A stretch of DNA of 64,000 nucleotides, taken from the IMG/VR virus record IMGVR_UViG_3300032243_000867, positions 192,001 through 256,000 of that record; one strand, given 5' to 3'. This document shows positions 657 through 56,200 of the stretch, one piece after another (the first letter of the stretch is position 1; each line of letters opens with the position of its first letter). Origin of the DNA: a virus (lineage: Duplodnaviria; Caudoviricetes). Below the pieces are notes generated by a model that had not been told where the DNA came from, did not search any database, and was given only the letters and a program-made list of their open reading frames with translations. The translations under genes and the position numbers were made by a program.

Positions 657-693
657 CCCCACCCCCTATCCGTTCTATCGCCCGCGCGCGGTG

Positions 694-1296
694 ATGGATC
701 CCATCACCGCTGCGGACGACAACGAGCCCACGAACCCGAAGCTCTGGGAGAAGTGCCAAGACGTAGCGAAGTCTCGCTACACCAAGTGGCCCAGTGCCTA
801 CGCGGTCGGGCACGCCCTCAAGCTCTACAAGGACGAGGGGGGTGGGTGGAAGAAGACCGCCAGCGCCGCCCGTGTCGCGTCCCGCTACCTGTCCGCCAAG
901 GGTAAGGCCAAGAAGGACGTAGGTCACGGGGGCCTCGACGAGTGGTTCAGCGGCCACGGTCAGGGCAAGGGCAAATCACCCGGTGAGGCGCGGTGGGGAG
1001 ATTGGGTGGCGATCTCGCCCGTGAAGCGCACGATCACCCGCGAGGACGGGACCAAGAAGACCTACGAGCCCGGTGACATCATTGGGCCGTGCGGCGACCT
1101 CACGGACGACCCCGACTGGAAAGACCTCACCCGGGGCGGCAAGACCCCTTTCAAGTGCATGGCCCGACCCAAGGCCCACGACATGGCTAAGGGCGAACGC
1201 GCTGACAAGGCCCGCGAGAAGATGCGCGTGCAGGAGAAGGCCCCCAAGGGCAAGAAGCCCGTGAACACGCCGACGTTCAAGGACGACGGGGACTAG
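694..1296 (+). CDS. Basic Lys-rich phage protein, two modules split by KKTA/RVASRYL
   Basis: WPSAYA..YK..GGGW and GLDEWF..WV.I motifs; CTAT box upstream. Confidence 0.65.
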   Translation: MDPITAADDNEPTNPKLWEKCQDVAKSRYTKWPSAYAVGHALKLYKDEGGGWKKTASAARVASRYLSAKGKAKKDVGHGGLDEWFSGHGQGKGKSPGEARWGDWVAISPVKRTITREDGTKKTYEPGDIIGPCGDLTDDPDWKDLTRGGKTPFKCMARPKAHDMAKGERADKAREKMRVQEKAPKGKKPVNTPTFKDDGD

Positions 1297-2538: not shown

Positions 2539-2772
2539 ATGACTACCCGCACCCCCCGTGAGAAGGCCACCCCGTTCGTCTATGTGATGGGCGACGCCGC
2601 CAAGACCCCCGTGGACCCCAAGACCCAGCCCGTGGGCACCGTTCTGGTGTTCGTGTCGGAGTGGGGACAGGAGACCCCGGCGGTCAAGGGCAAGACCGTC
2701 ACGAAGGATCAAGCCGCGCGCGACGCGAGCCTCGCCGCCGCGAAGGCCAAGCCCGCTGGCTACGAGGGCTGA
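2539..2772 (+). CDS. Small hypothetical protein
   Basis: AAGGAG at 2523, ATG 2539. Confidence 0.6.
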   Translation: MTTRTPREKATPFVYVMGDAAKTPVDPKTQPVGTVLVFVSEWGQETPAVKGKTVTKDQAARDASLAAAKAKPAGYEG

Positions 2773-2797
2773 TCCCCCGCCCACGGTCGTTTCATGC

Positions 2798-2806
2798 GGG
2801 CGTAAC
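2798..2806 (+). promoter_or_regulatory. GGGCGTAA(C/T/A) motif, putative -10 element (representative copy)
   Basis: Also on the - strand at 10317-10325, 35921-35929, 36483-36491, 43570-43578, 59356-59364, 60464-60472, 63528-63536. Confidence 0.65.
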
Positions 2807-2813
2807 TCCCCGC

Positions 2814-3293
2814 ATGGAACGACCGCACCCCGCCGACGACCCCGCCCTTGAACCCATCAGGGCTGCGATCCGCAAACTCCCCCCGTATCCGTTCGCCGTC
2901 TACGGCGATTCGGTGATGACCGACTACACCGCCGGGTTGAAGGCGTGCGAGACGCCCGAAGCCCTGCGCGAGTTCGTCGCCCGCTGGGCACCCCTGTGGA
3001 CGATCAATTTCCGTGAGCCGGATGTCACCTCCGTTGAAGAAATGTCCCTCGCGGAAGGCACCTTCGACGAGGGCGAAGTGTTCGCGGCGATGGCCACCCT
3101 TCGACAAGAGTCCAGCACCGACGAAGCTAGAAACGAGCTCGACCGTCTGATGCAGGACAGCCTTCCGCACCGCACGGCGATGAACGCCCTCATGCCCCGC
3201 GCGATGATTGAGATGACCATCGTCGCGAATCACTTCGGTGCGCCCGTGAACGTGGCCTGGATTCAGGCTTCGGGCCTCGTCGAGCTCTTCTAA
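2814..3293 (+). CDS. Hypothetical protein
   Basis: ATG 7 nt after GGGCGTAAC motif. Confidence 0.65.
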   Translation: MERPHPADDPALEPIRAAIRKLPPYPFAVYGDSVMTDYTAGLKACETPEALREFVARWAPLWTINFREPDVTSVEEMSLAEGTFDEGEVFAAMATLRQESSTDEARNELDRLMQDSLPHRTAMNALMPRAMIEMTIVANHFGAPVNVAWIQASGLVELF

Positions 3294-3344: not shown

Positions 3345-3401
3345 ATGGACAGACTCGCTTGCGTCATTGCTGCTGGTGTTTGGGACGGGGATTCATGCTG
3401 A
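3345..3401 (+). pseudogene. Stranded 5' copy (MDRLACVIAAGVWDGDSC*) of the gene restarting at 4069
   Basis: 9/13 identity to RTACIIAAGEWGG at the start of the 4069 ORF; lies right after the CTAT box and GTAGG. Confidence 0.7.
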
Positions 3402-3463
3402 CCCTGAATCTCACACCACGACGGTCTCTTCCATCATCCCCGTGGGTACCAAACAGAACCCAC

Positions 3464-4072
3464 ATGGATACTGGCGGATTGTATCTCCTGTGGCTTTCGG
3501 ACTCCCACTACTACGGGGGTAGAGCCAGGTGTTTCAATGAGCGGTGGCAAGGCCACCTCAAGGCCCTTCGGCAAGGCAAGCACTGCAACCCTTGGATGCA
3601 GCGGTTGTACAATATCCACAAGATGTTTGAGCCCGAGGTGTGCCTGGAACTTCCAACGGGTGGGGATCATCAGGCTGCGGAACAAGCCTGGATTGATGAG
3701 AACTACGGGAAGCCGGGTTGCGTGAATCTCAGTCGGGCCGCCGATGGTGGTGCCATGACCGGACGAAGGCACACCGCGGAGACCCGGGCCAAGATGTCCG
3801 CTTCGCGGAAGGGTAAGCCAACCAAGGCTCCGTCCCTAGAAACTCGGGCCAAGATGTCGGAGTCAGGTCGAAAGAGGGCCAAGATTTTCGGGGTGAGCCG
3901 TCCTCACACGGAAGACACCAAGGCGAAGATGTCGTCTTCTCATAAGGGGCTTGTGTTCACAGAAGAGCACAAGCTCAATATGTCTCTGAATCACGCGAGC
4001 AAAAGGGACCCGGAAGGTTACAGGGAAAAACTGCGGGCCGCTTGGTCTAGGAAAAAGGGAGTCACGCCGTGA
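3464..4072 (+). mobile_element. Free-standing GIY-YIG homing endonuclease with NUMOD3 repeats
   Basis: GLY..YYGGRA..F..RW..H...L..GKH.N N-terminus; HTAETRAKMS-type repeats; lower-GC codon usage. Confidence 0.85.
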
Positions 4073-6186
4073 ATTCCAGAACCGCATGTATCATCGCCGC
4101 AGGAGAGTGGGGAGGAAAGCGTGCTCTGTTGAAGTCGAGGGACCGCAACTACACCCCCGAGGTCACCCTCGTCCGCGAGCTCCTCGACGGCGTCGAGGTC
4201 GCGTATATGCGCGATGACGTGACGGGGTGGTGCGAGGGCATGAACGAGCATGGCATCGGGATTACCAACGCGGCGCTCGCCGTGGGGATCGACGAGGCCG
4301 AAGGAAAACTCGTCAAAGTCACGGGCAAGACGACGAAGGACGGCAAACGAATCCTCAAGGCTCTATCCTGCGACAACCTCGACGATGCCGTCGAGTCCGT
4401 CTGCGAGTTCATGGGGGGCTTGAAGGGGCACACGTTCGTATCGACCCCCAACAAGGTGCTCTGTATCGAGCAGACTCGGGAGCACGAGTGCCGGGTGATG
4501 GAACTGAACCCGGAGGATGTTCACGTCCGTACCAACCACGGCCACTACCACACAGACGCCGGGTACACGGAGGGGAAGGATTACGTCTCGTCGGTGATCC
4601 GCCGCGAGAAGGCGCTTCTCACCCTTCGCGATTTGGAGAGTCACCTTGATCTCGGCCCCGGTCTGATGAAGGGCCGGATGAAGGATCGGAACGATCCGAA
4701 CAACATGGTGCGGGACACGAACAATATGTCCACCACCTCCCAGATGGTGATGAACCTCACGGATCGGGAGGCAGTCTTCTACGTCATCCCCGGCAAGATG
4801 GACTACGAGGGGATAGAAGACAACCTCCCTGACGGTTACTCACCGAAGATCAAGATCAAAGTGTTCAGCTACCGCAACGGAGGCAAGGAGCTCGTGGAAC
4901 TCTCCCTAAAGACGGGGTTGCGCCGGAAGTCCGTGGACCCGGTGAAGCTCGCTTCCCGGTACCTGATGGCATCCTCGGCACACGCCAAGTCCATCGCGTT
5001 GATGAGTTTTCTGTCTGAGGTGGCCCGTGACGCTGGCGTCGCCCGACACGTCTACGTCGTCGGCGGTGCCGTGCGGAACTTCATCCTCGGTGTGCCCATC
5101 AAGGACATCGACGTGGTGGTGGACTCCGTGTCGGCGGGCCGGGATTCAGAGTGGTTCGCCCGAAAGGTGGTGGACGCCATCCCTGTCCCGACGAACCTCG
5201 CGACCAACCAGTACGGGGTGGGGATCCTCACCGTGAAGGGGGAGTGGCTGCTCGACGGGATCAACCTGAAGGGCGAGGTGATCGAGATCGCCAACGCCCG
5301 CAAGGAGTCCTACGAGGGTGCGGGGGGCAAGGGATACAAGCCCACGGACGTGTCCCCCGCGACCATTGAAGAGGATGTGTTCCGCCGAGAGTTCACGTTC
5401 AACACCCTGCTGTGGCGGATGCATGACCTCGCCAACGGCCCTGACAAGGCCGAAGTGATTGACCTCACGGGGCTGGGTCGTCAGCACCTTGAGCAGAAGC
5501 TCATCTCGACGCCCGTGGACCCCGACAAGACCTTCAGCGACGACCCGACTCGGATGCTCCGGGTCTTGAAGTTCTTGCTGCGGTATGACTTGACCATCTC
5601 GCCCGATGCTATGGCCTCTGTGAGGCGCAACGCCGCGAAGCTCAAGAATATGCCGTGGGAAGCTGTCGGGAACATCCTCGTCGGGGACATCCTCAAGTCA
5701 CCCAAGGCGACGATGGGCCTCAAAGTGATGCGTTCCCTTGGCCTACTCGACGTGATCGTCGAGATGGTGCAAGAGAACCCCCCGTTCGCGGCATACCTCA
5801 CCAAGCAACTGGCGAACGGCAACCATACGGTCGAGCTCTTGTTGGAGCTTGCCGACATCGGGATCGCGGGGAGGGTGCTGGACTTTTTGACGCCGAACGA
5901 GCGCGAGCAGTTCAAGCAGAACACCAGCGGATGGTCCAGTGACGAGGCAAGGAAGTACCTTGAAGCCCTGCGGAAACCCGCAGTGGACAACATGGCGCTC
6001 ATTCAAGAGTTCTCGTTGACGGGCAGGGCTCGCGCGAGCCTTGTCCCCATTGCTCGCGAGTTCCTCCTGTCGGACCCGAACTTGGCCGACCAAGACGTGA
6101 AACTCAACGACCGCGTGCGAGAGAGGCTCCGCGCATCCCCCGTCCGTGTCGCCCAACGGTTCGCTCGTCTATCGAGCCAACACTAG
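4069..6186 (+). CDS. Fusion of an Ntn-hydrolase (peptidase C45/AAT-like) and a CCA-adding/poly(A)-polymerase-family nucleotidyltransferase
   Basis: N-half: C-IIAAG, KSRDR, EGMNEHGIGITNAAL, RTNH. C-half: VYVVGGAVRN..DIDVVV, EIANARKE, EDVFRREFTFN, DDPTRMLRVLKF. Confidence 0.85.
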   Translation: MNSRTACIIAAGEWGGKRALLKSRDRNYTPEVTLVRELLDGVEVAYMRDDVTGWCEGMNEHGIGITNAALAVGIDEAEGKLVKVTGKTTKDGKRILKALSCDNLDDAVESVCEFMGGLKGHTFVSTPNKVLCIEQTREHECRVMELNPEDVHVRTNHGHYHTDAGYTEGKDYVSSVIRREKALLTLRDLESHLDLGPGLMKGRMKDRNDPNNMVRDTNNMSTTSQMVMNLTDREAVFYVIPGKMDYEGIEDNLPDGYSPKIKIKVFSYRNGGKELVELSLKTGLRRKSVDPVKLASRYLMASSAHAKSIALMSFLSEVARDAGVARHVYVVGGAVRNFILGVPIKDIDVVVDSVSAGRDSEWFARKVVDAIPVPTNLATNQYGVGILTVKGEWLLDGINLKGEVIEIANARKESYEGAGGKGYKPTDVSPATIEEDVFRREFTFNTLLWRMHDLANGPDKAEVIDLTGLGRQHLEQKLISTPVDPDKTFSDDPTRMLRVLKFLLRYDLTISPDAMASVRRNAAKLKNMPWEAVGNILVGDILKSPKATMGLKVMRSLGLLDVIVEMVQENPPFAAYLTKQLANGNHTVELLLELADIGIAGRVLDFLTPNEREQFKQNTSGWSSDEARKYLEALRKPAVDNMALIQEFSLTGRARASLVPIAREFLLSDPNLADQDVKLNDRVRERLRASPVRVAQRFARLSSQH

Positions 6187-6199
6187 GAAGAGATACCAA

Positions 6200-6913
6200 A
6201 TGGCAATCTACACATCCATCGGCGCGACCCCCGAGACGGCCCGCGCCATGATCGACGCCGTGGGGCCGACCCCCGACCAACAAACCCCCGCCCCGGGCGT
6301 CGGTGACGTTCTCTCTTGGAACGGGACAAACTGGGTGCCCGGTGCAACGGCCCCGGCGGGCTCCCTCCAGATGTACGCGGGTGCGACCGCCCCCTTCGGC
6401 TACCTTCTGTGCAACGGGGCGGCGGTCAGCCGCACGACCTATGCGGCTCTGTTCGCGGTGATCGGGGCGACCTACGGTGGCGGCGATGGGCTCAACACCT
6501 TCAACCTCCCCGACCTCCGTGGTCGCGGCCCTATCGGTGTCGGTACGGGCGCGGGTCTTACCGCACGGGTGCTAGGCGGGACGGGCGGCGCGGAGACGGT
6601 CACCCTCGACGCGACGACCATCCCGGGCCACACGCACACCGGCACGACGGACTCCAACGGGTCGCACGCGCACACGTCGAACGCCACGGGCGGTCAGGGA
6701 AACTACGGCCTCGCCCTCGCGGACGGTACCAACACGGTGACTTCGACGGACCCCAGCGCCGGGGAGCTCAACGTGTGGACCGTCCCGGCGGCGCTGTCCA
6801 TCGACGCGAACGGGGCGCACACGCACACGTTCACCACGGGTTCGACGGGCGGTGGCAGCGCGCACGCCAATATGCAGCCGTGGCTCGCCGTGAACTTCAT
6901 CATCAAGACGTGA
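6200..6913 (+). CDS. Phage tail-collar domain protein
   Basis: GSLQMYAGATAPFGYLLCNGAAVSRTTYAALFAVIG.TYG.GDG..TFNLPDLRGR; HTH/HAH repeats; NMQP.LAVNFIIK end. Confidence 0.92.
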   Translation: MAIYTSIGATPETARAMIDAVGPTPDQQTPAPGVGDVLSWNGTNWVPGATAPAGSLQMYAGATAPFGYLLCNGAAVSRTTYAALFAVIGATYGGGDGLNTFNLPDLRGRGPIGVGTGAGLTARVLGGTGGAETVTLDATTIPGHTHTGTTDSNGSHAHTSNATGGQGNYGLALADGTNTVTSTDPSAGELNVWTVPAALSIDANGAHTHTFTTGSTGGGSAHANMQPWLAVNFIIKT

Positions 6914-6915
6914 CC

Positions 6916-8589
6916 ATGAACCACCGCCGCACCCGAACCGCCGACGTGCCCAAGAAGTACGAGCACATCGATTTCAAGCCCCCGCAGTCGGTGGCCGACG
7001 AGGCCGAGAAGGGCCTTGAGTACCGGGAGAAGGCCAGCCCGTCGAACAAGGGCGGGCTCACCCCGGCGGAAGCGGCCAAGCAGGGCATCGGTAGTGGGGT
7101 GCAGCGTGCGGTGAACCTCAAGAACCGCGACAACACCTCCCCCGAGGTCATCAAGCAGATGGCGGCGTTCTTCTCGCGCCACGAGAAGAACAAAGGTGTC
7201 TCTCCCGAGCACAAGGGGGAACCTTGGAACGACAAGGGCAACGTCGCGTGGTTGATCTGGGGCGGCGACTCCGGGCGGGCGTGGGCTGAAAAGGTGAAGA
7301 AGCAGATGGAAACCGCTGACGAGAAGGCGAAGAAGAAGGCTGATATCTCCCCGCCGCTGGGCGTGAAGGGTGGCCCGTGCAAGGTGGTCGAGAGGATCAA
7401 CAACGCCATTCGCAACCCCTCCATGCGGACCGACCTCATCGAGGATGCCCAGACGGGAGACCTGTCAAATCAAGACGCCCGAAAGGTCTACCCACTCGAC
7501 ACGGAGAGCGGGTCTGGGTTCAAGAGTTTCACCATCCTGCCCCATGCCCAGTTCCGCATGGATTACCGATCCATCACGGTCAAGGACGTGGAGGCGGCGC
7601 TCAACTCCTTCATCGTCCACGCGCAGGGTCTACAGAGGTCGAACCCTCGCCAGTACGAAGCTTTGATGGCGCAAGACAAGATCGAATGGATCGACCCCAA
7701 GACGCGCCTGAAAATCGTCTTCGCCACCGACGCAGGGCGCATCGAGATCGTCACCGTGTTCTGGAAGGGTCGGCAAGATCCTCCCCCTGCCGTCTGCGAG
7801 ACGCCTTTCAGGAACCTTGCCCGTCGCGTCGCAGCCCAACACCAGATGAAGGATCTGACCTCCGTGACCGAGTACGAACCCCCCTTTCAAGTTATCGAGG
7901 CCGAGCTCACGGTGCTGGAATCCCTCTGGTCGGACATCCAAGCGGTGCTCGATACCTACGCGGAGACGGTGCCCATGCCGCACGTCGGGCGCATCGCCGC
8001 CGCCGACCTCGCCCTGCACTCGCAGACGGAGGTGTTCGTCAAGTGCGAGCACGCGATGCGACACGCGGAGCGTGTAGTCAATATGTGTCGCACGCAGCTT
8101 CAACTCAGCCCCGGCAACGAGACGGTTTCCTCGTTCCTGCGGGACGCGCAGATGTTGTATGACCGCTTCTCGGAGGGGCGTGCGGCGGCGCGGGAAGTTC
8201 TCTCCGCGATGAGCCAGAAGATCCTGCCCGTTGCGCTGAAAAGCATCGTCGCGGAGGCGGTAGACGCCGTGAAGGCCGTCACCCGGTACCCGAACAGCGT
8301 GACCGTGAAGATTCACGCCCACATGGCCCCGGTGGAGCTCAACAACGGGGTGGTGTCGGCGCAGGTCTTCGACGCCTACGTCACCGTCTACCCGCTGCCG
8401 AAGGACGAATCCCCCGCCTACCAGCAGCTCGTGTTCACTCAACGCACCCTCGGCGACACCAACGTCTACCTCACGGTGATCGACCGCACGAACGCGGAAG
8501 CCCCCGCCAAGCCCGTGAAGGTCACGGACGGGGAGACCGCCGCCAAGAAGATCCTCGCCTCCCTCAAGGGCTGGTCGGGCTTCGTTTGA
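6916..8589 (+). CDS. Multi-domain putative head protein: head-associated domain + DUF4258-like RNase domain + C-terminal domain
   Basis: PPQSVADEAEKGL..GGLT..QMAAFFSRH..AWLIWGGDSGRAW; HAQFRMDYRSITVKDVEAAL..KIVF..IVTVF. Confidence 0.65.
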   Translation: MNHRRTRTADVPKKYEHIDFKPPQSVADEAEKGLEYREKASPSNKGGLTPAEAAKQGIGSGVQRAVNLKNRDNTSPEVIKQMAAFFSRHEKNKGVSPEHKGEPWNDKGNVAWLIWGGDSGRAWAEKVKKQMETADEKAKKKADISPPLGVKGGPCKVVERINNAIRNPSMRTDLIEDAQTGDLSNQDARKVYPLDTESGSGFKSFTILPHAQFRMDYRSITVKDVEAALNSFIVHAQGLQRSNPRQYEALMAQDKIEWIDPKTRLKIVFATDAGRIEIVTVFWKGRQDPPPAVCETPFRNLARRVAAQHQMKDLTSVTEYEPPFQVIEAELTVLESLWSDIQAVLDTYAETVPMPHVGRIAAADLALHSQTEVFVKCEHAMRHAERVVNMCRTQLQLSPGNETVSSFLRDAQMLYDRFSEGRAAAREVLSAMSQKILPVALKSIVAEAVDAVKAVTRYPNSVTVKIHAHMAPVELNNGVVSAQVFDAYVTVYPLPKDESPAYQQLVFTQRTLGDTNVYLTVIDRTNAEAPAKPVKVTDGETAAKKILASLKGWSGFV

Positions 8590-47052: not shown

Positions 47053-47282
47053 GCCCCGCCCCCGTTCTTCATTCTCTCCCTCTGCTCCAAGGCGGCTTCC
47101 AGCTTGGACCGGCTCTCCGCGAGTTCCGTCTGAAGTAGTTCTCGGAGCTTCATCAGAAGTTCTCGGTTCTTCTGAATCGTCGGAAGCTCGTTGATGTCTA
47201 CGGGTTGGGTCTCCACCCATCGGGCATCTTCGGGCTTCAGCCCAAGAGCCTCTAGCCTCTTGAGCATTTCGGGGTCGATCAC
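47049..47282 (-). CDS. Small coiled-coil protein
   Basis: Coupled start; heptad C-terminus. Confidence 0.6.
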   Translation of the reverse strand: MIDPEMLKRLEALGLKPEDARWVETQPVDINELPTIQKNRELLMKLRELLQTELAESRSKLEAALEQRERMKNGGGA

Positions 47283-50200
47283 GGCAGCTTCTCCACGGAC
47301 TGTACGGTAAGCAGGGCTCTCTCAGCTTCGGCTTCGCGCTTGGGGCGTTCGATGTCGAAGCGGCGGATGCTTTCTAGGCTACCCGTCACGCGGTTCACGC
47401 GCAGGTCCAGCCATGCGTACCGGGTCGCGCGGAGCTTGTCCCGCCCGTCGAGGGCTTCATTCACCCGGTCCACCAGCACGGGTCGCCCCACTCCGTTCGA
47501 GAGGTCGGCATACGGGGTCACGGGGAGTGCCGCGTAGCGCGGCCCCACGGTGTCCAGCCGGTAGTCAAGGCACCAGAAGCGGCGGTCGAGGATAGAGAGA
47601 CAATCCCGCACGTTCGAGAACGGCGATACCGTCCAGTTGCCGATCAGCCCCAAGAGGTACGGGTTGGTGAGCAGCCCCAGACCGCTTTCGGGGTCGGTGG
47701 TCAACCCGAGGTCGGTGATGTGCTGGTCGCGTTGGAACAAGAAGTACGTCCCGTACTTGAACCGCACGGCGCGGATCTCTTCCATCCACGACAGCATTCG
47801 TTCGCGCATGGAAAGGATGAGCTCGACCGTCTTCGAGGAGAGCAGGGAGGTCGGTCGGATCACCCGGTACGCGAAGGGCTCGACGGACTTGAACGTGGTC
47901 GTGTACGAGTTGCCCACGGGCGGGGCGGTCTCGCGCAGGTCCATCTGCCCTTCCGTACCGCCCGTGAGCCCGCTGGCGTGGACAGTGGGGTAGACGGTGT
48001 AGGCGTTCGTGCCCGATCCGAAGGTCACGTCCCCGCCGTTGTTGCCCGCGAGTCCTCCGATGGCTTCGACGGTGAGCTGGGTAGCCGTGCGGGAGACGAC
48101 CCGGTAGTAGCCCCGGTTGTCGTCGGCGCGGGCGGGGCTTCCCGCTGCGTAGTTCGCCCTACCCGTCACGGCGTTGTCGCCGTAGGGGCGTCGCCCGTAC
48201 TGCGGCGGGGTAGTAGAACCCGCGGGGGTGGTAAGGGTTCCCGCCGGGTCGATGACGACGATGTCGCCCTCAGCTACCCCTGCCGCCGTGTAGTTCACCG
48301 TGGTGTCGGTGTCCCCGATCTTGTTCGTAGCCGGGGCGCGTCCGCCCGTTTGTGCCACGAGGTTCGCGGGTCTGTTGATCAGCACCCGGTCGGTCGCGTA
48401 GCCGAGAAGTTCCTCGTTGGATTGCTCGTGCGGGACGGGCGGAACCTTCAGGTACACCTCGAAGCGCGCACCGGGGGCGACCGTCACCTTGCGGGACAGA
48501 GTGAGGGTACGGGCTCCCGTGACCTTCACCACCTCTGCCCGTGCGGCGATCACCCCCGAAGCGTTGATGAAACGCACCTCGTCGCCGGGGTTCACGTTCA
48601 CGAGCTTGCTGGTGAAGTCGCCCAGTTGGGTAGCGGTTCCGCCCACGGTTGCCACGGGGGGCACCGCGCCGTCCACGGCGTCGGCGGTGAGAACCCCGTA
48701 CCCGCCCGAAGCGGTGACGGTGGAGACGATGCCACGGCGGATCTCGTAGCTGTACCGCAGGGACAGCAGGGCTTCCGCGAACGAGTTGCCGAGGTCATGG
48801 AAGCGGCGCGGGCGGCGCACTTCGATCTGGCCCACCTCAAGGTACGAGTTTCCTGCTACCGGGACGCTGGTCATGTACGTGGTGAGGCGACGTACGCCGA
48901 CGCGGGACGTAGTGCTGGTGTTGCCCGCGTCCACGACGTTGCGATAGATGGGGTCCGCGAGGGTGTTGCCCGTGCGCGGGAACGAGGGCTCGACGTAGAT
49001 GCCCGCCGCGCCCGAATAGTCCACCGTCCAAGCGTCACCGGGCAAGAAGCACCGCGCACCGTCGATGGCGAACGGCGGAGGGTACACGCCCGTAGGGGTG
49101 TGCAAGCGGTCCCAATCGGTGCCCGCAGTGTAGATACTGGTGATGTCCATCACGCCGGGGATCTCGTCGTACACGGGCGCGGACAGGGGTAGGAACGTCT
49201 CCGAGGTGAGCTTGATCTTCTCGTACACGTCCACCTTCGAGGTGGCTGGCGGAACGTAGCTGAGAAACCCGAGCGTACTGGCCGTCCAATTGAGGGTGTT
49301 CGCGCCGCGCGTTGCTTGAAGGGTTCGCAGCCCGTAGGCTGAGTTCGGGCTCGCGCCGTCACCGCCGTTGCAATAGCCGGGGAGGTTCTCCGGGATGCCG
49401 TCCCCGTGCGGGTTCAGCGGGATCATCGTGAAGCCCGACACCTTCAGGCCCGCCTGTGCGGCGGTTGCGAAGGCCGCTCCCGAGATGGCGAGCCCCTGCC
49501 CGTCTTGGTAGTTGTTCAGCCCCGTGAAATCCATGGTTACGGGGTTGAAGCCCGTGTAATCGGCGCTCACGATGCTGGAGGCGAACGTCGCGGGGACAGG
49601 GCTATTCAACCCCGCCTCGTTGACGATCACGAACACCCGCCCAGCGGGTGGGAAGGTGTGCGTTTGTGCGGTGGCCGTTCCCGCCCAGTTCTTCGACGGC
49701 GGGAGGGAAGGGATCTCCGACACGATCAGGTTCGTGGCGGTTGCCGTTACCACCGTGGGGAACGCCACCGGGAGCCAGCCCGAGGAATAGTCCCCCGCGC
49801 CATCGGGCACGGTGTACGTCACGTCGCGCCGTTCCAACCCGCCGCCGGAAGCGATCACTCCCCGTACGAGGTGCGTTCCCACCTTGCCGTTCTGCGCGGC
49901 CTTCGTGTACGCCGGGTCTTCGCTGTTCGACCGAAGGGTTACGATGTCGCCGGGGAGCACGCTGGCCGTCGCCCCCGTGAGCGTGGCCGAGGGAATGAAG
50001 CGGTTGTCCCCCCATGAGAACGTGTGCGCCACGGGCGTGCCGTCGATACGGTCCGTGTACACGTCGGCGGTGAGGATCGCGTTCGTGGTGTTTTGCCGTG
50101 AGGACGGGGCGGCGCTGAACGTGATGTTCGTACCCGGGATAGCGATATTCCCGTGCCCCTCGAAGGGCATGGTCTTCAGGGCGAACACCCCGGTGCCCGT

Positions 50201-53200
50201 TTCGGCCCCCACACCGAAGGTGCCCGTGGTGAAGGGCGCATAGTTACGCTGGAGGAACGTGAAAGGGACGCCCCCGTTGACGTTCGCAGCGCGGTTGACC
50301 GTGTTGTAGATGTCGGCGGTGCCTACGGGGACGGTCGTTTCGTAGGTGGACAGGGCGCGCACCACTTCGAGGCGGCACTCGACGGACTCCGCCGCCGGGT
50401 TCACCGCCCCGCGCTCGCGGGCGCTGCGGGTGTCCACGGGGCCGGATACGGTCAGCCGGTCACCCTCGATAACGTAGGCGGCGGACTTCACCGCTACGAG
50501 GTCGATGGTGAAGTCCAGCGGGTCAAGATCGGTCACGCCTCCGTAGGCGGCGAAGTCGAACACCGGGACGGCGGTTTCGACGGTGAGCTTCGTGGTGTTG
50601 AAGAAGCACGGGCCTACGCTTGGAACGAACGACCCGCCGTTGTCGCCCGATACGTCGAACACGCACGCCGTGATAACGGGGTTCGGGGCGTTCAATCGCA
50701 TGATGAACGTCGCGGCGGGAGCGAACGTGCCCGAAGCCTTCATCACGTTGATGCGAATTTCCGAAGGCTGGTCGGACGAGGTGAAGAAGGTGTTGAACCC
50801 GCCCGTGGGGGGGACGGCCCCGCCGCCGCCGTTGTTGTCGTCGAACACGAGGTTCGGCACGCCGATGAGCTCGAACGTCGTGCGGTAGTTCGGCCCGAAG
50901 GGGGCCTGCTTCACCCGGATGCCCGTGGTATGGGGAGCGGGAAAGGGCGGGTCGGCTTCGATGAACGTCTGGATCGCCGTGACGTTCAGGTCGATCAGGC
51001 TGTTCTTGTCGGTGCGAGAGATGAACCGTGGGGGTTCGATGACCTTCGCCCCGTAGTCCACCGCCCCCACGGTGAGGATGCCCTGCGACCCGTTGGGGAG
51101 ACCGCCCGTGCCTTGTTGGACGAACACGAGGTCGTAGGGGTTCACCGTGCCCACGCCCGAGTGCGCGGCGAACGGGGGGTCAAGGGTGACCGAAGCCCGA
51201 AGGGCGGCGGGTGCGGTAGGGAGGCTGTTGACCGCCCCGGCGTTGTCGAGGATCTCGTCCGGGTACGCGGCTTCCAGCGCGTACGGCGGGTACCCCGGGG
51301 CGGGCGGGTTCGCGGGCGGCGTCACCGTATCTACGGTGTAGAAGTCCACGCCCGCCGTGAAGGCGTCCCCAAGAACGGCGAGCTCCGTGGGGGCGATCTG
51401 GTAGTAGGGCAGGGAGTAATCCCCCGAGTCGAGACGGGATGCACCCCGTAGGGCCGGGATGTTTGACGGGCTCACGTCTCCGTTCTGGAACGTCACCCGA
51501 GCTTGAAGGTTGCGAAGCGGGGCGGGGGGCTTCTGGCCGAAGATTTCCTTCAGCCCGAAGAGGTTGGGGTCGCTGAACGACGGCAGGGTGATGTCTACTA
51601 GCTCGCCCGAGCGCCCGTCCAACCCCACGTCCGTTCCCGTGCGGTAGGCGGGAAGGGACTGCGAGAAGGCCGCGAGTTCGGCGTTCGTCGGCGGGTCGGA
51701 CACGGCGGGGAGCACCGCGCCCGTGGTAGGAACCACGAACAGGGTGTCCCCCTTCTCGACCAGCGCAGCGGTGAGGGGCACGCCGTTCGCCGGGGCCGTG
51801 AGGCGCACGAGATTGCCCACGTTCGCCGCGGTGATCAGGACCGTTGCCCCCGCCGCGTCGTAGGTCTTCAGCGTGACGTAGCACCCTTGGAGGACCGTAT
51901 CGACGAACACCCCCGCATACACGGGTTGCCCGCCCACGGTGATTGTCGTGCCCGCGTAGCCCAGCCCGTAAACCGCCCCGTCGGGGGTTCCCAGTGATAG
52001 TTGGTCGCCGGGGGCGAAGGGCGGCGTGTGAAGGCTGGGGTCGCCCGTAGACAGGTCGTACAGGCCCGAGGTGCCCGTGCCGTTGGAGTACAGCAGGGCC
52101 GTGTCGGGCGTGCCGTTGGACTTCAGCGGGAACTGATCGAGGGGGAGCACCGTCGCCGCGAAGGCGGGTCGAATGACCGGGGGGACGGCGCTGAGGTAGC
52201 CCGAGGGCGAGAACGAGAAGATGCGGGCGCGGGCGAGACGATCTTGCACCGTGGCCCCGAGCACCGACGTGAGGTTGCCCCGCACGGGGTTGCTCAACCG
52301 CGCGATGGCTTTCCCGTTGGTGGACTGAAGGTCGATGACGGGCGGCGACGCGAACAGGTCTAGAAGCAGCTTCCCGTAGCTGTACACCCCGTTGTTGCCC
52401 GTGGTCGGGTCGTACCCGATGCCGGGGTCGGTGGTAGTAAACGCTTCCGTGCGTTCGGGGTACAGCCGCGAGAAGGCCGAAGGCTGGGACAGCCCCCGGT
52501 ACACGCCGTAGGAGGACACCTTGAAGTGGATGAGCCCCGTGAGGGATACCGTGGTGCCGGTGAGGCCGTTGAGCACAACGTCGTCAACGTCGTTCTTGAT
52601 GGCGCGGTATTGGGCGTTTTGAAGCGTTCCGAGGGCGTTCGCGGAGAGGGCCAGACCCTCGACCGCCCCGCCCGTGAGCGTCGCGCTGTACGGGTTGACG
52701 ATGGGGTCGGTGGCGAGAAGCGCGACGGGCACCGTGCGGTAGCCGTTCCAGACTTCGTTCCACACGTTGCGGGCGTTGACCGCCCCAGTGATGCCGTCCT
52801 CGTATCCCGGCGGCGTCCACGGGTCGCCCACCCCCATCCACATACGGAGCTTGCCGTCGCGGTCACCCACGGGGTTGCCCGCGATGTTCTCCAACACCTG
52901 CTCGAACGAGGTGATCACCCCGTTGAAGTAGCGGAGGAACGTACGGGTCACCCGGTCACGGGACACGAGGTCTTGCCGCTCGGATGTCAGCCCCGCCGTG
53001 CCTTGCGTGGACGGGGAGTTCTTGGGGAATCCCCCCACCGAGGGGTTCGTGCCCGAGGCGTTGCGGGTGACCCCCTGCACGATGCTCCGCGCCGTCTCCG
53101 TGATGTACGCGGGGAGAGGTAGCGACCGTGCATAGAAGCTATCGGGCGAATCGAACGTGTAGGTGGCGGTGAGGGTCGCACCCAGCCTCCCGTTGCTATC

Positions 53201-56200
53201 GCTGGGCGGGTCGATGTAGCCCGCCGATGCGCTCACCCGTGGGTACTGCACTTTGCCCTGAAACACGAACGGGGCGAGAGTGCCTTGCACGGTGCGGTAG
53301 AACTGCAACGAGGACAGGGCCGGGAGGCCCCGCGTGCGCGGTTCCAGCAGGGTGAGCGTGCCCGCCGAAGGGTCCAGTTGGTAGTCTCGCCCTTCCGTAA
53401 GCGTCGCGCCGGGGACGGTGCCTTCGTACAGGACCACCTCGTAGGGCTCGGTGCCAACGAACGCGCCCGCGCCGATGAACACCGTTGCGCCTTCCGAGTA
53501 CACCGGGCGCACGGAGATGCGGACGTAGTTCGGGCTCATTCCCGAGGTCCAGGTCATCTGGATGGGGGACGGCGACCCGAGGGTGATGTCGGTGAACGCC
53601 CCGTCTACGAACTCTCCCTTGGCGATGAGGAAGGGCACCCCGAAGAGTTCGAGGACGTGACCCGTCACCGCGTACCGGGTGAGATCCCCCTCGAAGCGCA
53701 CGACGTTCTGGCCCTTGGTGAGGGGCTGGAAGGCCGGGACGCTAGCCAACCCGTAGGCCGCGGTGAGCAGGGGCAGGAACCCCGCGTCGGCACCCGTCGC
53801 GACGGGCGACCCCACGGGGTCCACCGTGGGTGTGATGGCCCGGTCGGTGAGGAGGTTGATGGGCGGTTCGCTAGGGGAGAGCGTGCCCACGCTCTTCGTC
53901 GGCGTCGGGTACACCGTGACGGTGGTGATGTCCGCGGGAAGGCCGCTGTAGACGGACGCCTTGATGTAGGTGAGGTAGTTGCTGATACGAAGAATGCGCC
54001 CCGGCACCATGTCCGCAGTGCGGTCGCCGTCGAGATTGAACGTCGAGACGTTGGCTTCAAGGCGGAACGGCGGACGCCACACGGGGCCTTGAGACACCGT
54101 GTAGGAGGTTTCGCCGCCCGAGGCTTCGTACACCCCGTAGGTGATCAGCACCTTCGTCGCGGGGTCGTTGACGGCTTTCACCAATGAGATGGTGTTGTTC
54201 GACGGGGTGACCGTGCAGCCCTTGGGGAACCCGTACGTCACCAACGTCGCCCCCACGTACACCGAGGGCTCTACGTCTGTGTCGATGGTGCGCCCCACCG
54301 CGTTGAACGAGTAAAGCTGCGAGCTGACGCGCGCCGCGGCTTCGCGACGGACGATCACGGGCAGGAACTCCGTCACCTGCACGGGTTTCCCGTCACTGTC
54401 TAGGTACAGCGCGCCCGAGTCGGGCACGGCGCGGTAGTAGGTGACCTCGACCAGTTGCCCGGTCTGTACCGGGCGCTCGAAGGAGAACGCCCCGAGGATC
54501 GGGTTCAAGAACACCGTCTCGAAGGTCTGGAGGTCAACGAGGTAGATGCGGTCGGTTCTGAGGGACAGCCCCGCAACGCTCACCGCACCCGTAAACGGGC
54601 TGATCTCAGCTTCACCCGCCGGGACGTTCGCAGACGGCAGTACCTCTTCGCGGTACGTCACCGTGGCCGATTGATAGTTGGCCTTCACCGTCGCGCCGAA
54701 GCGGAGCTCCCCGTCCGTCGTGCGGTACTGCACTACGTTCGCGGGGATGGGGGCGAGGAAGTTCGGCACGGGCAAGAGGTCCACGCCGTGGGCGAACACC
54801 TTGGTGCCCACGACAACGCTGAACGACCCGGTGGTGAAACGATCCCCCGCCGCGGGAACGTTCAGCGCCCCGTCTGCGACGGACCCGAGAACGGAACTGG
54901 TGAGAATGGTCGCCGGGAAGTTCGCGCCTGTGAGCCCGTACCGCACGGCGAGGGAGCGACCCGAGTTCGCCGTGGGGAGGTCAACGGGCGACGGGGCGGC
55001 GGGGGCCGTGCCCAGAAGGGTCAGCAACCGCACTTCGTACGGTTCGCTGGAGAGGTGGTTGAAGTCCCGGTAGACGGCATCGCCCAGCACGGCGGGGTTG
55101 ATCGTTCCCGGCGCGACCCCGTCATAGAGCTCCCACGCGACGTTGCCCGTGCTGGCGGCGATGAAGTCCGGGGTGACGGTGATGGTGGGGGCGGTAGAAG
55201 CCGTGACCGTGTACGAGCCCGCGTTCGCGCCCGAGGTCACCTTCAAGCGGTCGCCCGCGCTGGCCGTGATGGTGAGGGACGTATCGGTGAGAGTGTTGGG
55301 AAGGGTGATCGCCCCACGGTAGCCCGATTGCTTCAGTTCACCGATGCGGGTGACCAGCACCGCCTCGCCCGAGCCCGAAGGCACCAAGAAGTCCGTCCCG
55401 AGGGTGAGCGTCTGCGCCGCCCCGCCCGTCGCGGACACCTTGAGGTATCCCCCCATCGCCGGGTAGAAAGTGGACGGAACCACCCCCGCGTTGCCGAGGT
55501 TGATGGATGAGACGGGCGATAGAACCTGCCCCGCGAACGAGAAGGTGGACAGCCATCCGAAGCGTGACTGGTCGAACTGGTAAACGGCGTCCTTCCAAGG
55601 TTTGACGGTGGTGCTGAGACGCAGCGTGTTCGGGGATGCAACGCCCGACAGGGAGAAGAACTCCCCCACGTCGTAGCCCGCGATGTCCTCGCGCGGCGGG
55701 TAGCTCAGGAGCTGGTACGGGATGGTTTGAAGGTCTTCCGATAGGGCCGCGTCCGTCACCCGATAGGTAGCCCGCACGTCGGGGGCGCTTTGCGACCCGT
55801 CGAGATTGTTCGGGCTGCGGGACAGCCCGAAGGCGAGGCCCGTATCGGGGAGCCAGTTCGGGTCCGTGGCGGTGTGCGTTCCCGCGCTGGGGTTGGAGAC
55901 GCGCCACCCGGGCGGGTACCCCATCGCGCGGCACCCGTCCTCGTTGAAGCCCACGGCCACGGTGCCCGTGGGGTTGTTCGATGCGATGTACAGGTAGCCC
56001 GAGAGAACGCCCGCCGTGCCCGCCCCAGCCATGATGGCATTGAGGGCGACGGCCACCGTCGCGGCGGGTACGTTCGTTCCCGCCGCGGGTGAGTAGTTGA
56101 AAGCGGTGCCGTCCACCGAGAAGGTGAACGTCTCGGTGCCCGCGAAGGTGAACGTGTCGCGGGTGCGCGAAAACACCCTTGCACCGTCGGGGTACGAGGC

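Follow-up and report, generated by a model that had tools for sequence, protein, structure and literature searches.

Background

Polyvalent proteins (Iyer et al. 2017, PMC5512222), like the 'Swiss Army Knife' RNA-repair proteins of the Pfam HAD_SAK_1 family, are shuffled strings of unrelated enzyme domains, InPase, 2H, ART-PolyVal and GNAT among them, which are predicted to serve counter-defence or host takeover and to be processed into units. Here we describe a phage gene that shares these traits, in which an N-terminal nucleophile (Ntn) hydrolase module and a tRNA nucleotidyltransferase (NTase) module are joined in one open reading frame (ORF). It lies in a 64,000-nucleotide stretch of DNA (the window; positions 192,001 to 256,000 of IMG/VR record IMGVR_UViG_3300032243_000867, Duplodnaviria, Caudoviricetes). 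The whole record comprises 265,895 bp (~63% G+C) at a CheckV completeness of 59%, and therefore belongs to a jumbo phage of roughly 450 kb; genome-wide absences reported below for this record cover about 59% of the genome.

As in polyvalent proteins, two or more unrelated enzymatic domains share a chain and the architectures vary among relatives. The modules described here differ in being separate genes as often as they are fused. In the text of Iyer et al. (PMC5512222) the Ntn domain is mentioned 0 times, a Pol-beta NTase is listed only for proteins of conjugative elements, and the processing peptidase is a zincin MPTase. Our literature search returned no account of an Ntn-NTase fusion or of the Ntn family. 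Judged from sequence, the gene belongs with the polyvalent, Swiss-army-knife style of phage enzyme kit.

A genuine two-module gene

The fusion ORF (P0001; 4069..6186, on the + strand, as are all features below unless stated otherwise) encodes 705 aa and runs from a GTG start, with a GGGAG Shine-Dalgarno sequence 7 nt upstream, to a TAG stop. It is a single open frame with no internal stops and no change of frame. A search of 5.8 billion proteins recovered seven further full-length proteins of the same architecture, all in frame and all metagenomic (P0002, P0003, P0005, P0006, P0011, P0012 and P0014). These come from separate assemblies, on contigs of up to 372 kb, and their identities to P0001 are 97, 80, 82, 72, 48, 48 and 47%. 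The predicted nucleophile Cys7 and all of the NTase motifs are invariant across the aligned homologues, and the linker between the modules is conserved. A search for the same fusion in a collection of 50,697 phage genomes found no record with both halves.

Assembly error, frameshift or read-through might be thought to have created such a gene, since the record is a metagenomic assembly and a homing endonuclease has rearranged the 5' end of the gene (see below); the original prediction had left room for an artefact of this kind. However, the absence of stops and frame changes, together with the in-frame recurrence of the fusion at identities as low as 47% and the conserved linker, makes this explanation extremely improbable. 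We conclude that the ORF is a genuine two-module gene. Overlapping and antisense ORFs within it gave zero family matches, the region had no Rfam match, and its promoter and terminator signals were not above chance.

The N-terminal module is a predicted Cys-Ntn hydrolase

Several families of Cys-Ntn hydrolases have been structurally described, including isopenicillin-N acyltransferase (IAT; C45, 2x1c-e), NAAA and acid ceramidase (C89), and bile-salt hydrolase (BSH) and penicillin V acylase (PVA; C59). They have in common an alpha-beta-beta-alpha fold, a nucleophile Cys that opens the first strand, an Arg/Asp pair ~17–18 residues past this Cys with conserved Asn and Arg residues further on, and a short leader that needs removal for activity. 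The N-terminal module of the fusion protein (aa 7–285; 4087..4923) shares each of these features, the removal of the leader being predicted.

An AlphaFold2 (AF2) model built on a 103-sequence alignment (predicted local distance difference test [pLDDT] 93.7, predicted template-modelling score [pTM] 0.91) confirmed that the N-terminal half is predicted to adopt the four-layer alpha-beta-beta-alpha Cys-Ntn hydrolase fold. Foldseek placed isopenicillin-N acyltransferase at the top (E 1.6e-8), followed by bile-salt hydrolases, penicillin V acylase, NAAA and TANGO2, in agreement with the C45/AAT-like domain proposed in the original prediction. With VIA-align, the highest score was obtained for CV2077 (3gvz, Z 19.3), followed by NAAA beta chains (18–19, with 18.8 in one comparison), IAT (17.4–17.8), acid ceramidase (17.7), and BSH and PVA (15–16). 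The likeness to TANGO2/NRDE proteins (CII...NRD) is limited to weak Foldseek matches.

In these structural alignments residue 7 of the model is paired with NAAA Cys126, IAT Cys103, acid ceramidase Cys143 and BSH Cys2, and the pairing of residue 7 with the start of the mature chain holds in nearly all matches. Because it is aligned with the first residue of mature chains, Cys7 (TGT at 4087–4089) is the predicted N-terminal nucleophile. Residues conserved throughout the family further include K22, R24, D25, Y28, D49, E56, N59, N156, R178 and R215.

At the sequence level, in contrast, the phage module is only 10–16% identical to the described Cys-Ntn hydrolases. Pfam AAT (PF03417, peptidase C45) scored 16.7 bits on P0001, below its cut-off of 23.2, while the homologues P0055 (32.5 bits) and P0004 (24.1 bits) passed this threshold. 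A profile search of the PDB sequences with the family alignment gave zero matches, which argues for a distinct family, and we treat it as a separate family related to Pfam AAT. When 1.84 billion representatives were searched exhaustively with HMMER, 452 clusters were collected; ESM Atlas clusters are 100% viral and labelled 'hypothetical protein'. The assignment of a fold and a catalytic residue would thus apply to a large family of phage proteins annotated as hypothetical.

Only two of the 50,697 phage records contain the Ntn domain, those of Chryseobacterium phages MA9V-1 and MA9V-2, and in MA9V-1, whose Ntn protein is of the stand-alone type, all of the neighbouring genes encode hypothetical proteins. 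A pattern-limited scan of cellular genomes, in which 185,579 species were represented by one genome each, returned two metagenome-assembled contigs only. The family therefore looks virus-only, which, together with the occurrence of the domain at any position in giant multidomain proteins, sets it apart from the described Cys-Ntn hydrolases.

The nucleophile Cys is present in 143 of the 144 representatives with a covered N-terminal end. In P0001 it is preceded by a six-residue leader, (M/V)NSRTA, which places it in an R-x-A context (4069..4086). More than 30 residues precede the Cys in 53 of the 143 representatives, where the domain is internal or C-terminal. Cleavage would be needed for activity in such proteins, and we infer from these placements that the upstream peptide is removed, either by autoproteolysis or by an external protease.

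The C-terminal module is a CCA-type nucleotidyltransferase

The identity of the C-terminal half (aa 300–705; 4966..6183) was already recognised in the original prediction and is upheld by Pfam, PHROG and PDB comparisons. Its head region matches Pfam PolyA_pol (PF01743) at aa 328–479 (E 1.6e-14, 54.8 bits against a cut-off of 23), and the half as a whole matches PHROG 2244, tRNA nucleotidyltransferase (E 9.5e-33), as well as CCA enzymes in the PDB, with an E of 1e-16 for the cca2 structure 9ns4. The AF2 model (pLDDT 93.0) aligned with the Thermotoga maritima enzyme (3h38) at Z 25.1, with 283 residues aligned over model positions 6–396, with the Planococcus enzyme (6qy6) at Z 22.8, and with that of Bacillus stearothermophilus (1miv) at Z 22.0 over positions 10–401. 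Escherichia coli poly(A) polymerase scored lower, at Z 18.2. Head, neck, body and tail are all present in the model, which makes this half a complete class II CCA-type NTase.

With class II CCA enzymes (3h38/5hc9, 1miv, 6qy6) the module shares the PolyA_pol head, the Asp pair of motif A and the end-to-end architecture (Z 22–25), at ~21–24% sequence identity. Like the Bacillus, Thermotoga and eukaryotic CCA enzymes, it is ~405 aa long and lacks an HD domain; none was detected in P0001 at E<=1 in the Pfam search, as noted before. In pairing an NTase with a further, hydrolytic activity on a single chain, the protein is similar to the multifunctional E. coli CCA enzyme, which consists of an NTase and an HD phosphohydrolase. 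The partner in the present case is, however, an amidase-type Ntn fold and not an HD phosphoesterase, and the HD-like healing function would fall to 2H, HAD and InPase modules, which are fused to the NTase in relatives and encoded by separate genes here.

The motifs of the module deviate from the canonical ones. Motif A (GGAVRNFILGVPIKDID, 5062..5112) holds the previously noted GGAVRN...DID string (aa 332–348), in which the residue behind VR is Asn and not Asp across the whole subfamily (GGAVRN for GGxVRD); the two catalytic carboxylates, D346 and D348, are kept, as judged from the PDB alignment and family counts. The string EDVFRRE is likewise present (aa 435–441). It had been read as a variant of the nucleotide-templating motif, whereas alignment with the cca1/cca2 structures and family counts place it in motif B, the RRD ribose-recognition box (EDVFRREFTFN, 5371..5403), with RRE as a conservative change from RRD. 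The templating motif was thus misassigned: motif D, equivalent to EDxxR, is DDPTR (aa 491–495; 5539..5553), which aligns with EDPLR of 9ns4 and keeps the base-contacting Asp and Arg while its leading Glu has changed to Asp. Motif E is degenerate, with no ERxxxE.

GGAVRN, RRE and DDPTR each occur in more than 100 of the 121 NTase relatives (DDPTR in 103), and are therefore traits of the phage subfamily and not specific to the fusion. The deviations in motifs B, D and E mean that nucleotide specificity may differ from CCA. The module further differs from class II CCA enzymes in being phage-encoded and modular, with an N-terminal tag helix, and its activity is predicted.

Cassette exchange among closely related phages

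Two syntenic loci, L002 and L003, have flanking genes ~96% identical to those of the window and differ from it within the fusion gene itself. The window is 96% identical to L002 up to the homing endonuclease and only 53–92% identical from the insertion point of the endonuclease through the Ntn module; identity of 100% resumes at 4969 and continues through the NTase. L003 lacks exactly 4958–6144, the NTase segment, and its Ntn module continues directly into the same C-terminal tail. Among collected proteins, P0016 lacks the NTase and has the Ntn allele of the window (96%) fused to the neighbouring module protein w6916. In P0122 and P0123 the Ntn module stands alone and ends in the same tail, and in P0005 an Ntn allele of 60% identity is combined with an NTase of 98%.

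Near-identical phages therefore hold Ntn alone, Ntn-NTase, Ntn-w6916 or NTase-w6916. These comparisons demonstrate exchange, and Ntn and NTase appear from the alignments to be independent, swappable cassettes. The fusion is one facultative arrangement of the modules. Such phages, with their differing module sets, offer a natural experiment on how an enzyme kit is rebuilt by cassette exchange, in this case alongside a homing endonuclease.

This endonuclease, of the GIY-YIG/NUMOD3 type (3395..4072; NUMOD3 E 4e-11, GIY-YIG weak, PHROG 314 homing endonuclease E 4.9e-20), interrupts the Ntn gene behind codon 15 and is absent from the syntenic loci L002 and L003. Upstream of it, 18 codons (MDRLACVIAAGVWDG plus 3) and then a stop survive as a remnant of the former 5' end of the gene (3346..3402). 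The first 15 codons of the remnant are those of the intact L002 gene start, apart from one synonymous change at codon 12 (GTT/GTG), and in L002 they run on uninterrupted into the gene. The stop codon of the endonuclease overlaps the new GTG start of the fusion (GTGA), with which a recoded version of that N-terminus begins, leader and Cys included. The divergent Ntn allele starts exactly at the endonuclease insertion relative to L002, as would be expected if the endonuclease and the Ntn cassette had arrived together.

The recombination breakpoint with L002 and the edge of the L003 deletion both fall at the joint between the modules, where a short peptide, KLASRY (aa 293; 4945..4962), forms the first copy of a tag of the form [KR][VLI]A[SAQR][RKQ][YFH]. 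The second copy, RVAQRF, is C-terminal (aa 693; 6145..6162), in the same tail that ends the stand-alone Ntn proteins of relatives. The tag occurs 95 times in 375 collected proteins, with 94 of these copies outside domain cores, against 2.45 times in shuffled sequences; the counts include relatives by descent and do not represent independent events. In the phage's own genome there are nine copies against 0.8 expected, located in the module protein w691, the fusion, w6916, a topoisomerase IB (TopoIB) protein and two others. Cassettes are, to judge from these patterns, joined at a shared [KR][VLI]Ax[RK][YF] peptide.

Partner modules of the Ntn domain and the nucleotidyltransferase

P0001 has two domains and its relatives have up to six or more, in a total of 36 architectures. 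Across 150 representatives, the Ntn domain stands alone in 41, heads a longer protein in 49, is internal in 27 and C-terminal in 26, and its host proteins reach 2,792 aa. Partners of the domain in its 88 multidomain holders are most often topoisomerase IB (22), followed by PolyA_pol (8), 2H phosphoesterase (7) and DUF5661 (7), with GGACT/ChaC, GNAT, RNA ligase, HAD_SAK_1, Zeta/AAA_33 kinase, PAP2, InPase, SOD and Ham1 being rarer. The NTase family occurs most often either alone or in fusion with 2H, InPase, HAD or w6916. Ntn and NTase are joined in 17 proteins, in at least six domain orders. The Ntn family forms a hub of jumbo-phage multi-enzyme proteins tied to RNA-repair and topoisomerase modules.

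The longest of these chains, P0262 (2,792 aa), contains in order an RNA ligase, NTase, HAD_SAK_1, 2H, Ntn and TopoIB. In the locus L006 an NTase-HAD_SAK_1-2H gene ends and the next gene starts at the Ntn leader, so that the gene boundary coincides with the position of the Ntn Cys in P0262, that is, with the predicted cut site.

Leaders and possible packaging in the phage head

The peptide before the Cys falls into two main classes: [KR]x[AGS] in 95 of 143 representatives and [LIVM]xE in 41, against background frequencies of 2.8% and 1.8%, respectively. Four representatives begin Met-Cys, and three belong to no class. Where described Cys-Ntn hydrolases usually have Gly before the Cys, the phage family has one of these two leaders. 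As the Met-Cys forms indicate that the enzyme needs no particular leader, the two conserved types probably serve an outside protease.

In phage T4, cargo proteins bear leaders of 10–20 residues, and T4-type proteases cut after Glu in x-X-E motifs (PMC5694885). The 41 Ntn representatives with leaders of 5–35 aa ending in [LIVM]xE are similar in this respect to T4 IPI-III and Alt, whose targeting sequence is removed by gp21 (PMC5694885), and phages of this class, like T4, encode a gp21-type Peptidase_S77, which we found in three of five [LIVM]xE-class records (13–31% complete). None of six [KR]xA-class records, including the phage's own genome and a 288-kb relative, contained Peptidase_S77, and no Peptidase_S77, S78 or S21 was found in the phage's own record or in four related records, all of them incomplete. 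The clade of the window differs from the T4 internal-protein system in using [KR]xA, in having no recognisable S77 and in carrying a different tag at either terminus. The correspondence between leader class and protease is suggestive, in small numbers, of a Cys unmasked by the head protease and hence of a family of head cargo proteins. It points to a testable mechanism, in which an Ntn zymogen would be switched on by capsid maturation.

Further hints of packaging come from the shared terminal tag and from the position of sister modules in the phage's own record. A HAD_SAK_1 phosphatase gene (E 1.6e-21) and a gene for a 1,156-aa 2H/topoisomerase IB protein (~92,790–96,800 of the record; L033 4793–8805) are flanked by the portal gene on one side and, near 98 kb, by an intein-interrupted ORF with a weak PHROG match to 'head maturation protease' on the other. 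Hint and LAGLIDADG intein signatures were seen within the region of this match (98,071–100,000 of the record; L033 10072–12000), and the ORF may be an intein-split prohead protease. From this context, packaging of the modules in the phage head, as raised in the original prediction, is plausible.

Proposed role and alternative explanations

We suggest that the fusion is a two-module gene built of cassettes from a facultative, polyvalent 'Swiss-army-knife' kit, which combines a Cys-masked Ntn hydrolase with CCA-type tRNA repair; we hold this explanation to be somewhat more likely than not. The kit would draw on a pool comprising Ntn, NTase, 2H, HAD_SAK_1, RNA ligase, InPase, topoisomerase IB, w691 and w6916, which related phages would fuse, split and exchange at the short [KR][VLI]Ax[RK][YF] joints. 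In P0001, Cys7 would be masked by the six-residue leader ending in R-T-A, and the Ntn module would become active only after cleavage at Ala6|Cys7, either autoproteolytic, as in known Ntn enzymes, or by a head-maturation protease, the latter being suggested by the leader classes. The NTase would rebuild damaged tRNA 3' ends, while 2H and HAD_SAK_1, which this phage encodes as separate proteins, would supply the end-healing role of the HD domain, and the enzyme kit would plausibly travel as head cargo.

Of the tRNA-repair and RNA-tailing roles raised in the original prediction, tRNA 3'-end repair is the better reading, because the module has the full architecture of a CCA enzyme and is fused in relatives to RNA ligase, HAD_SAK_1, 2H and InPase, and we consider this role of the NTase probable. 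With one tRNA gene in the record and neither an RNA ligase nor RtcB, healing of 3' ends and rebuilding of CCA fits better than sealing of anticodon breaks. A role in the maturation of the phage's own tRNAs is unlikely, given a single tRNA gene in the sequenced part.

Several observations weigh against this explanation as a whole. The sole tRNA gene in 265.9 kb is a tRNA-Leu(TAG) (75,929–76,010 of the record), and searches of the sequenced ~59% of the genome gave neither an RNA ligase nor RtcB. The head protease of this phage clade is weakly identified, and the argument for packaging is one of gene context. Motifs B, D and E depart from those of canonical CCA enzymes, and descent contributes to the tag counts given above.

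The two activities might instead be coupled, with the Ntn module removing a blocking group, such as an acyl or N-acyl-aminoacyl moiety, from tRNA 3' ends before the fused NTase rebuilds CCA, so that Ntn would be a further end-healing partner beside 2H, HAD and InPase. This would accord with the other frequent NTase partners (2H, HAD_SAK_1, InPase) all being 3'-end- or phosphate-healing enzymes, with the joining of Ntn and NTase in so many different orders, and with the closest folds all cleaving non-peptide amides. However, near-identical phages drop the NTase and leave the Ntn module unchanged (L003, P0016, P0122, P0123), the commonest Ntn partner is topoisomerase IB, at 22 of 88 multidomain holders against eight for the NTase, and there are >100 stand-alone Ntn proteins, most Ntn loci having no NTase within 6 kb. 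The speed with which the modules are joined and separated argues that they work independently and makes catalytic coupling less likely; Ntn and NTase are not an obligate catalytic pair, and we regard coupling as improbable. A specific form of it, in which the Ntn module is a tRNA-end deblocking enzyme carried as head cargo, its Cys unmasked by the head-maturation protease, and removes acyl or N-acyl-aminoacyl adducts placed by host toxins before the NTase rebuilds CCA, is a speculative and quite improbable proposal. If the amidase acts on RNA adducts, or if the NTase subfamily has an altered specificity, phages would have more means of countering tRNA-targeting immunity than are now known.

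A substrate for the Ntn module would be superfluous if it were a cutter acting in cis, which separates the modules of a polyprotein. Its internal or C-terminal position in 53 of 143 representatives and the coincidence of the L006 gene boundary with the Cys of P0262 are in line with this, while 90 representatives have 1–27 upstream residues and hence nothing to release, four of the family begin Met-Cys, and R24, D25, N156, R178 and R215 are conserved family-wide, as expected of a working active site; we therefore think it very doubtful that cutting is the only function. Nor can the Ntn module release the downstream NTase in cis, as the original prediction had proposed, since Ntn enzymes cut upstream of the nucleophile Cys and not downstream. 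The NTase, for its part, could be an RNA-tailing enzyme, that is, a poly(A) polymerase or an adder of other nucleotides to host or phage RNA, as the altered motifs A (GGAVRN), B (RRE) and D (DDPTR) of the whole subfamily, the degenerate motif E and the match with E. coli poly(A) polymerase at Z 18 might indicate. Set against this are the best, full-length structural matches, which are to true CCA-adding enzymes and take in the tRNA-binding body and tail, the co-occurrence of the NTase with RNA-repair modules, and the retention of the base-contacting Asp and Arg of motif D. Tailing is thus unlikely, and we favour CCA-type repair by a facultative module.

Neighbouring genes in the window

Downstream of the fusion, a gene for a 255-aa protein with a tail-collar domain (6146..6913; Pfam Collar E 1.6e-22) lies between the fusion and w6916. 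DNA alignment showed that in L002 (about 8100–8200) ~630 bp of this collar gene are missing, a loss that fuses the Ntn-NTase in frame to w6916 in a 1,289-aa ORF. The module protein w6916 itself (6916..8589) has 557 aa, an ATG start and a region weakly similar to DUF4258 (RelE/BECR-type), and in relatives it is often fused to Ntn or to NTase. A longer, TTG-started ORF at 6316–8589 is a probable over-call, the likely gene being the ATG-started 6916–8589. Within w6916 there is an internal RRVAAQH tag, and relatives insert InPase or phosphatidylserine decarboxylase domains in or beside it.

Upstream, the module protein w691 (691..1296) gives a weak DUF5872 match, carries the tag and is fused to Ntn, 2H and NTase in relatives. 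Its homologues are interrupted in frame by ~1.07 kb in L002 (2259–3941) and L003 (2723–4420), and Pfam detected no intein or endonuclease within this insert. The genes at 1419–2519 and 2661–3293, between w691 and the fusion, are conserved and 97% identical in L002, with no Pfam or PHROG match. Elsewhere in the window, an ORF of 3,560 codons occupies 47279–57961 on the - strand.

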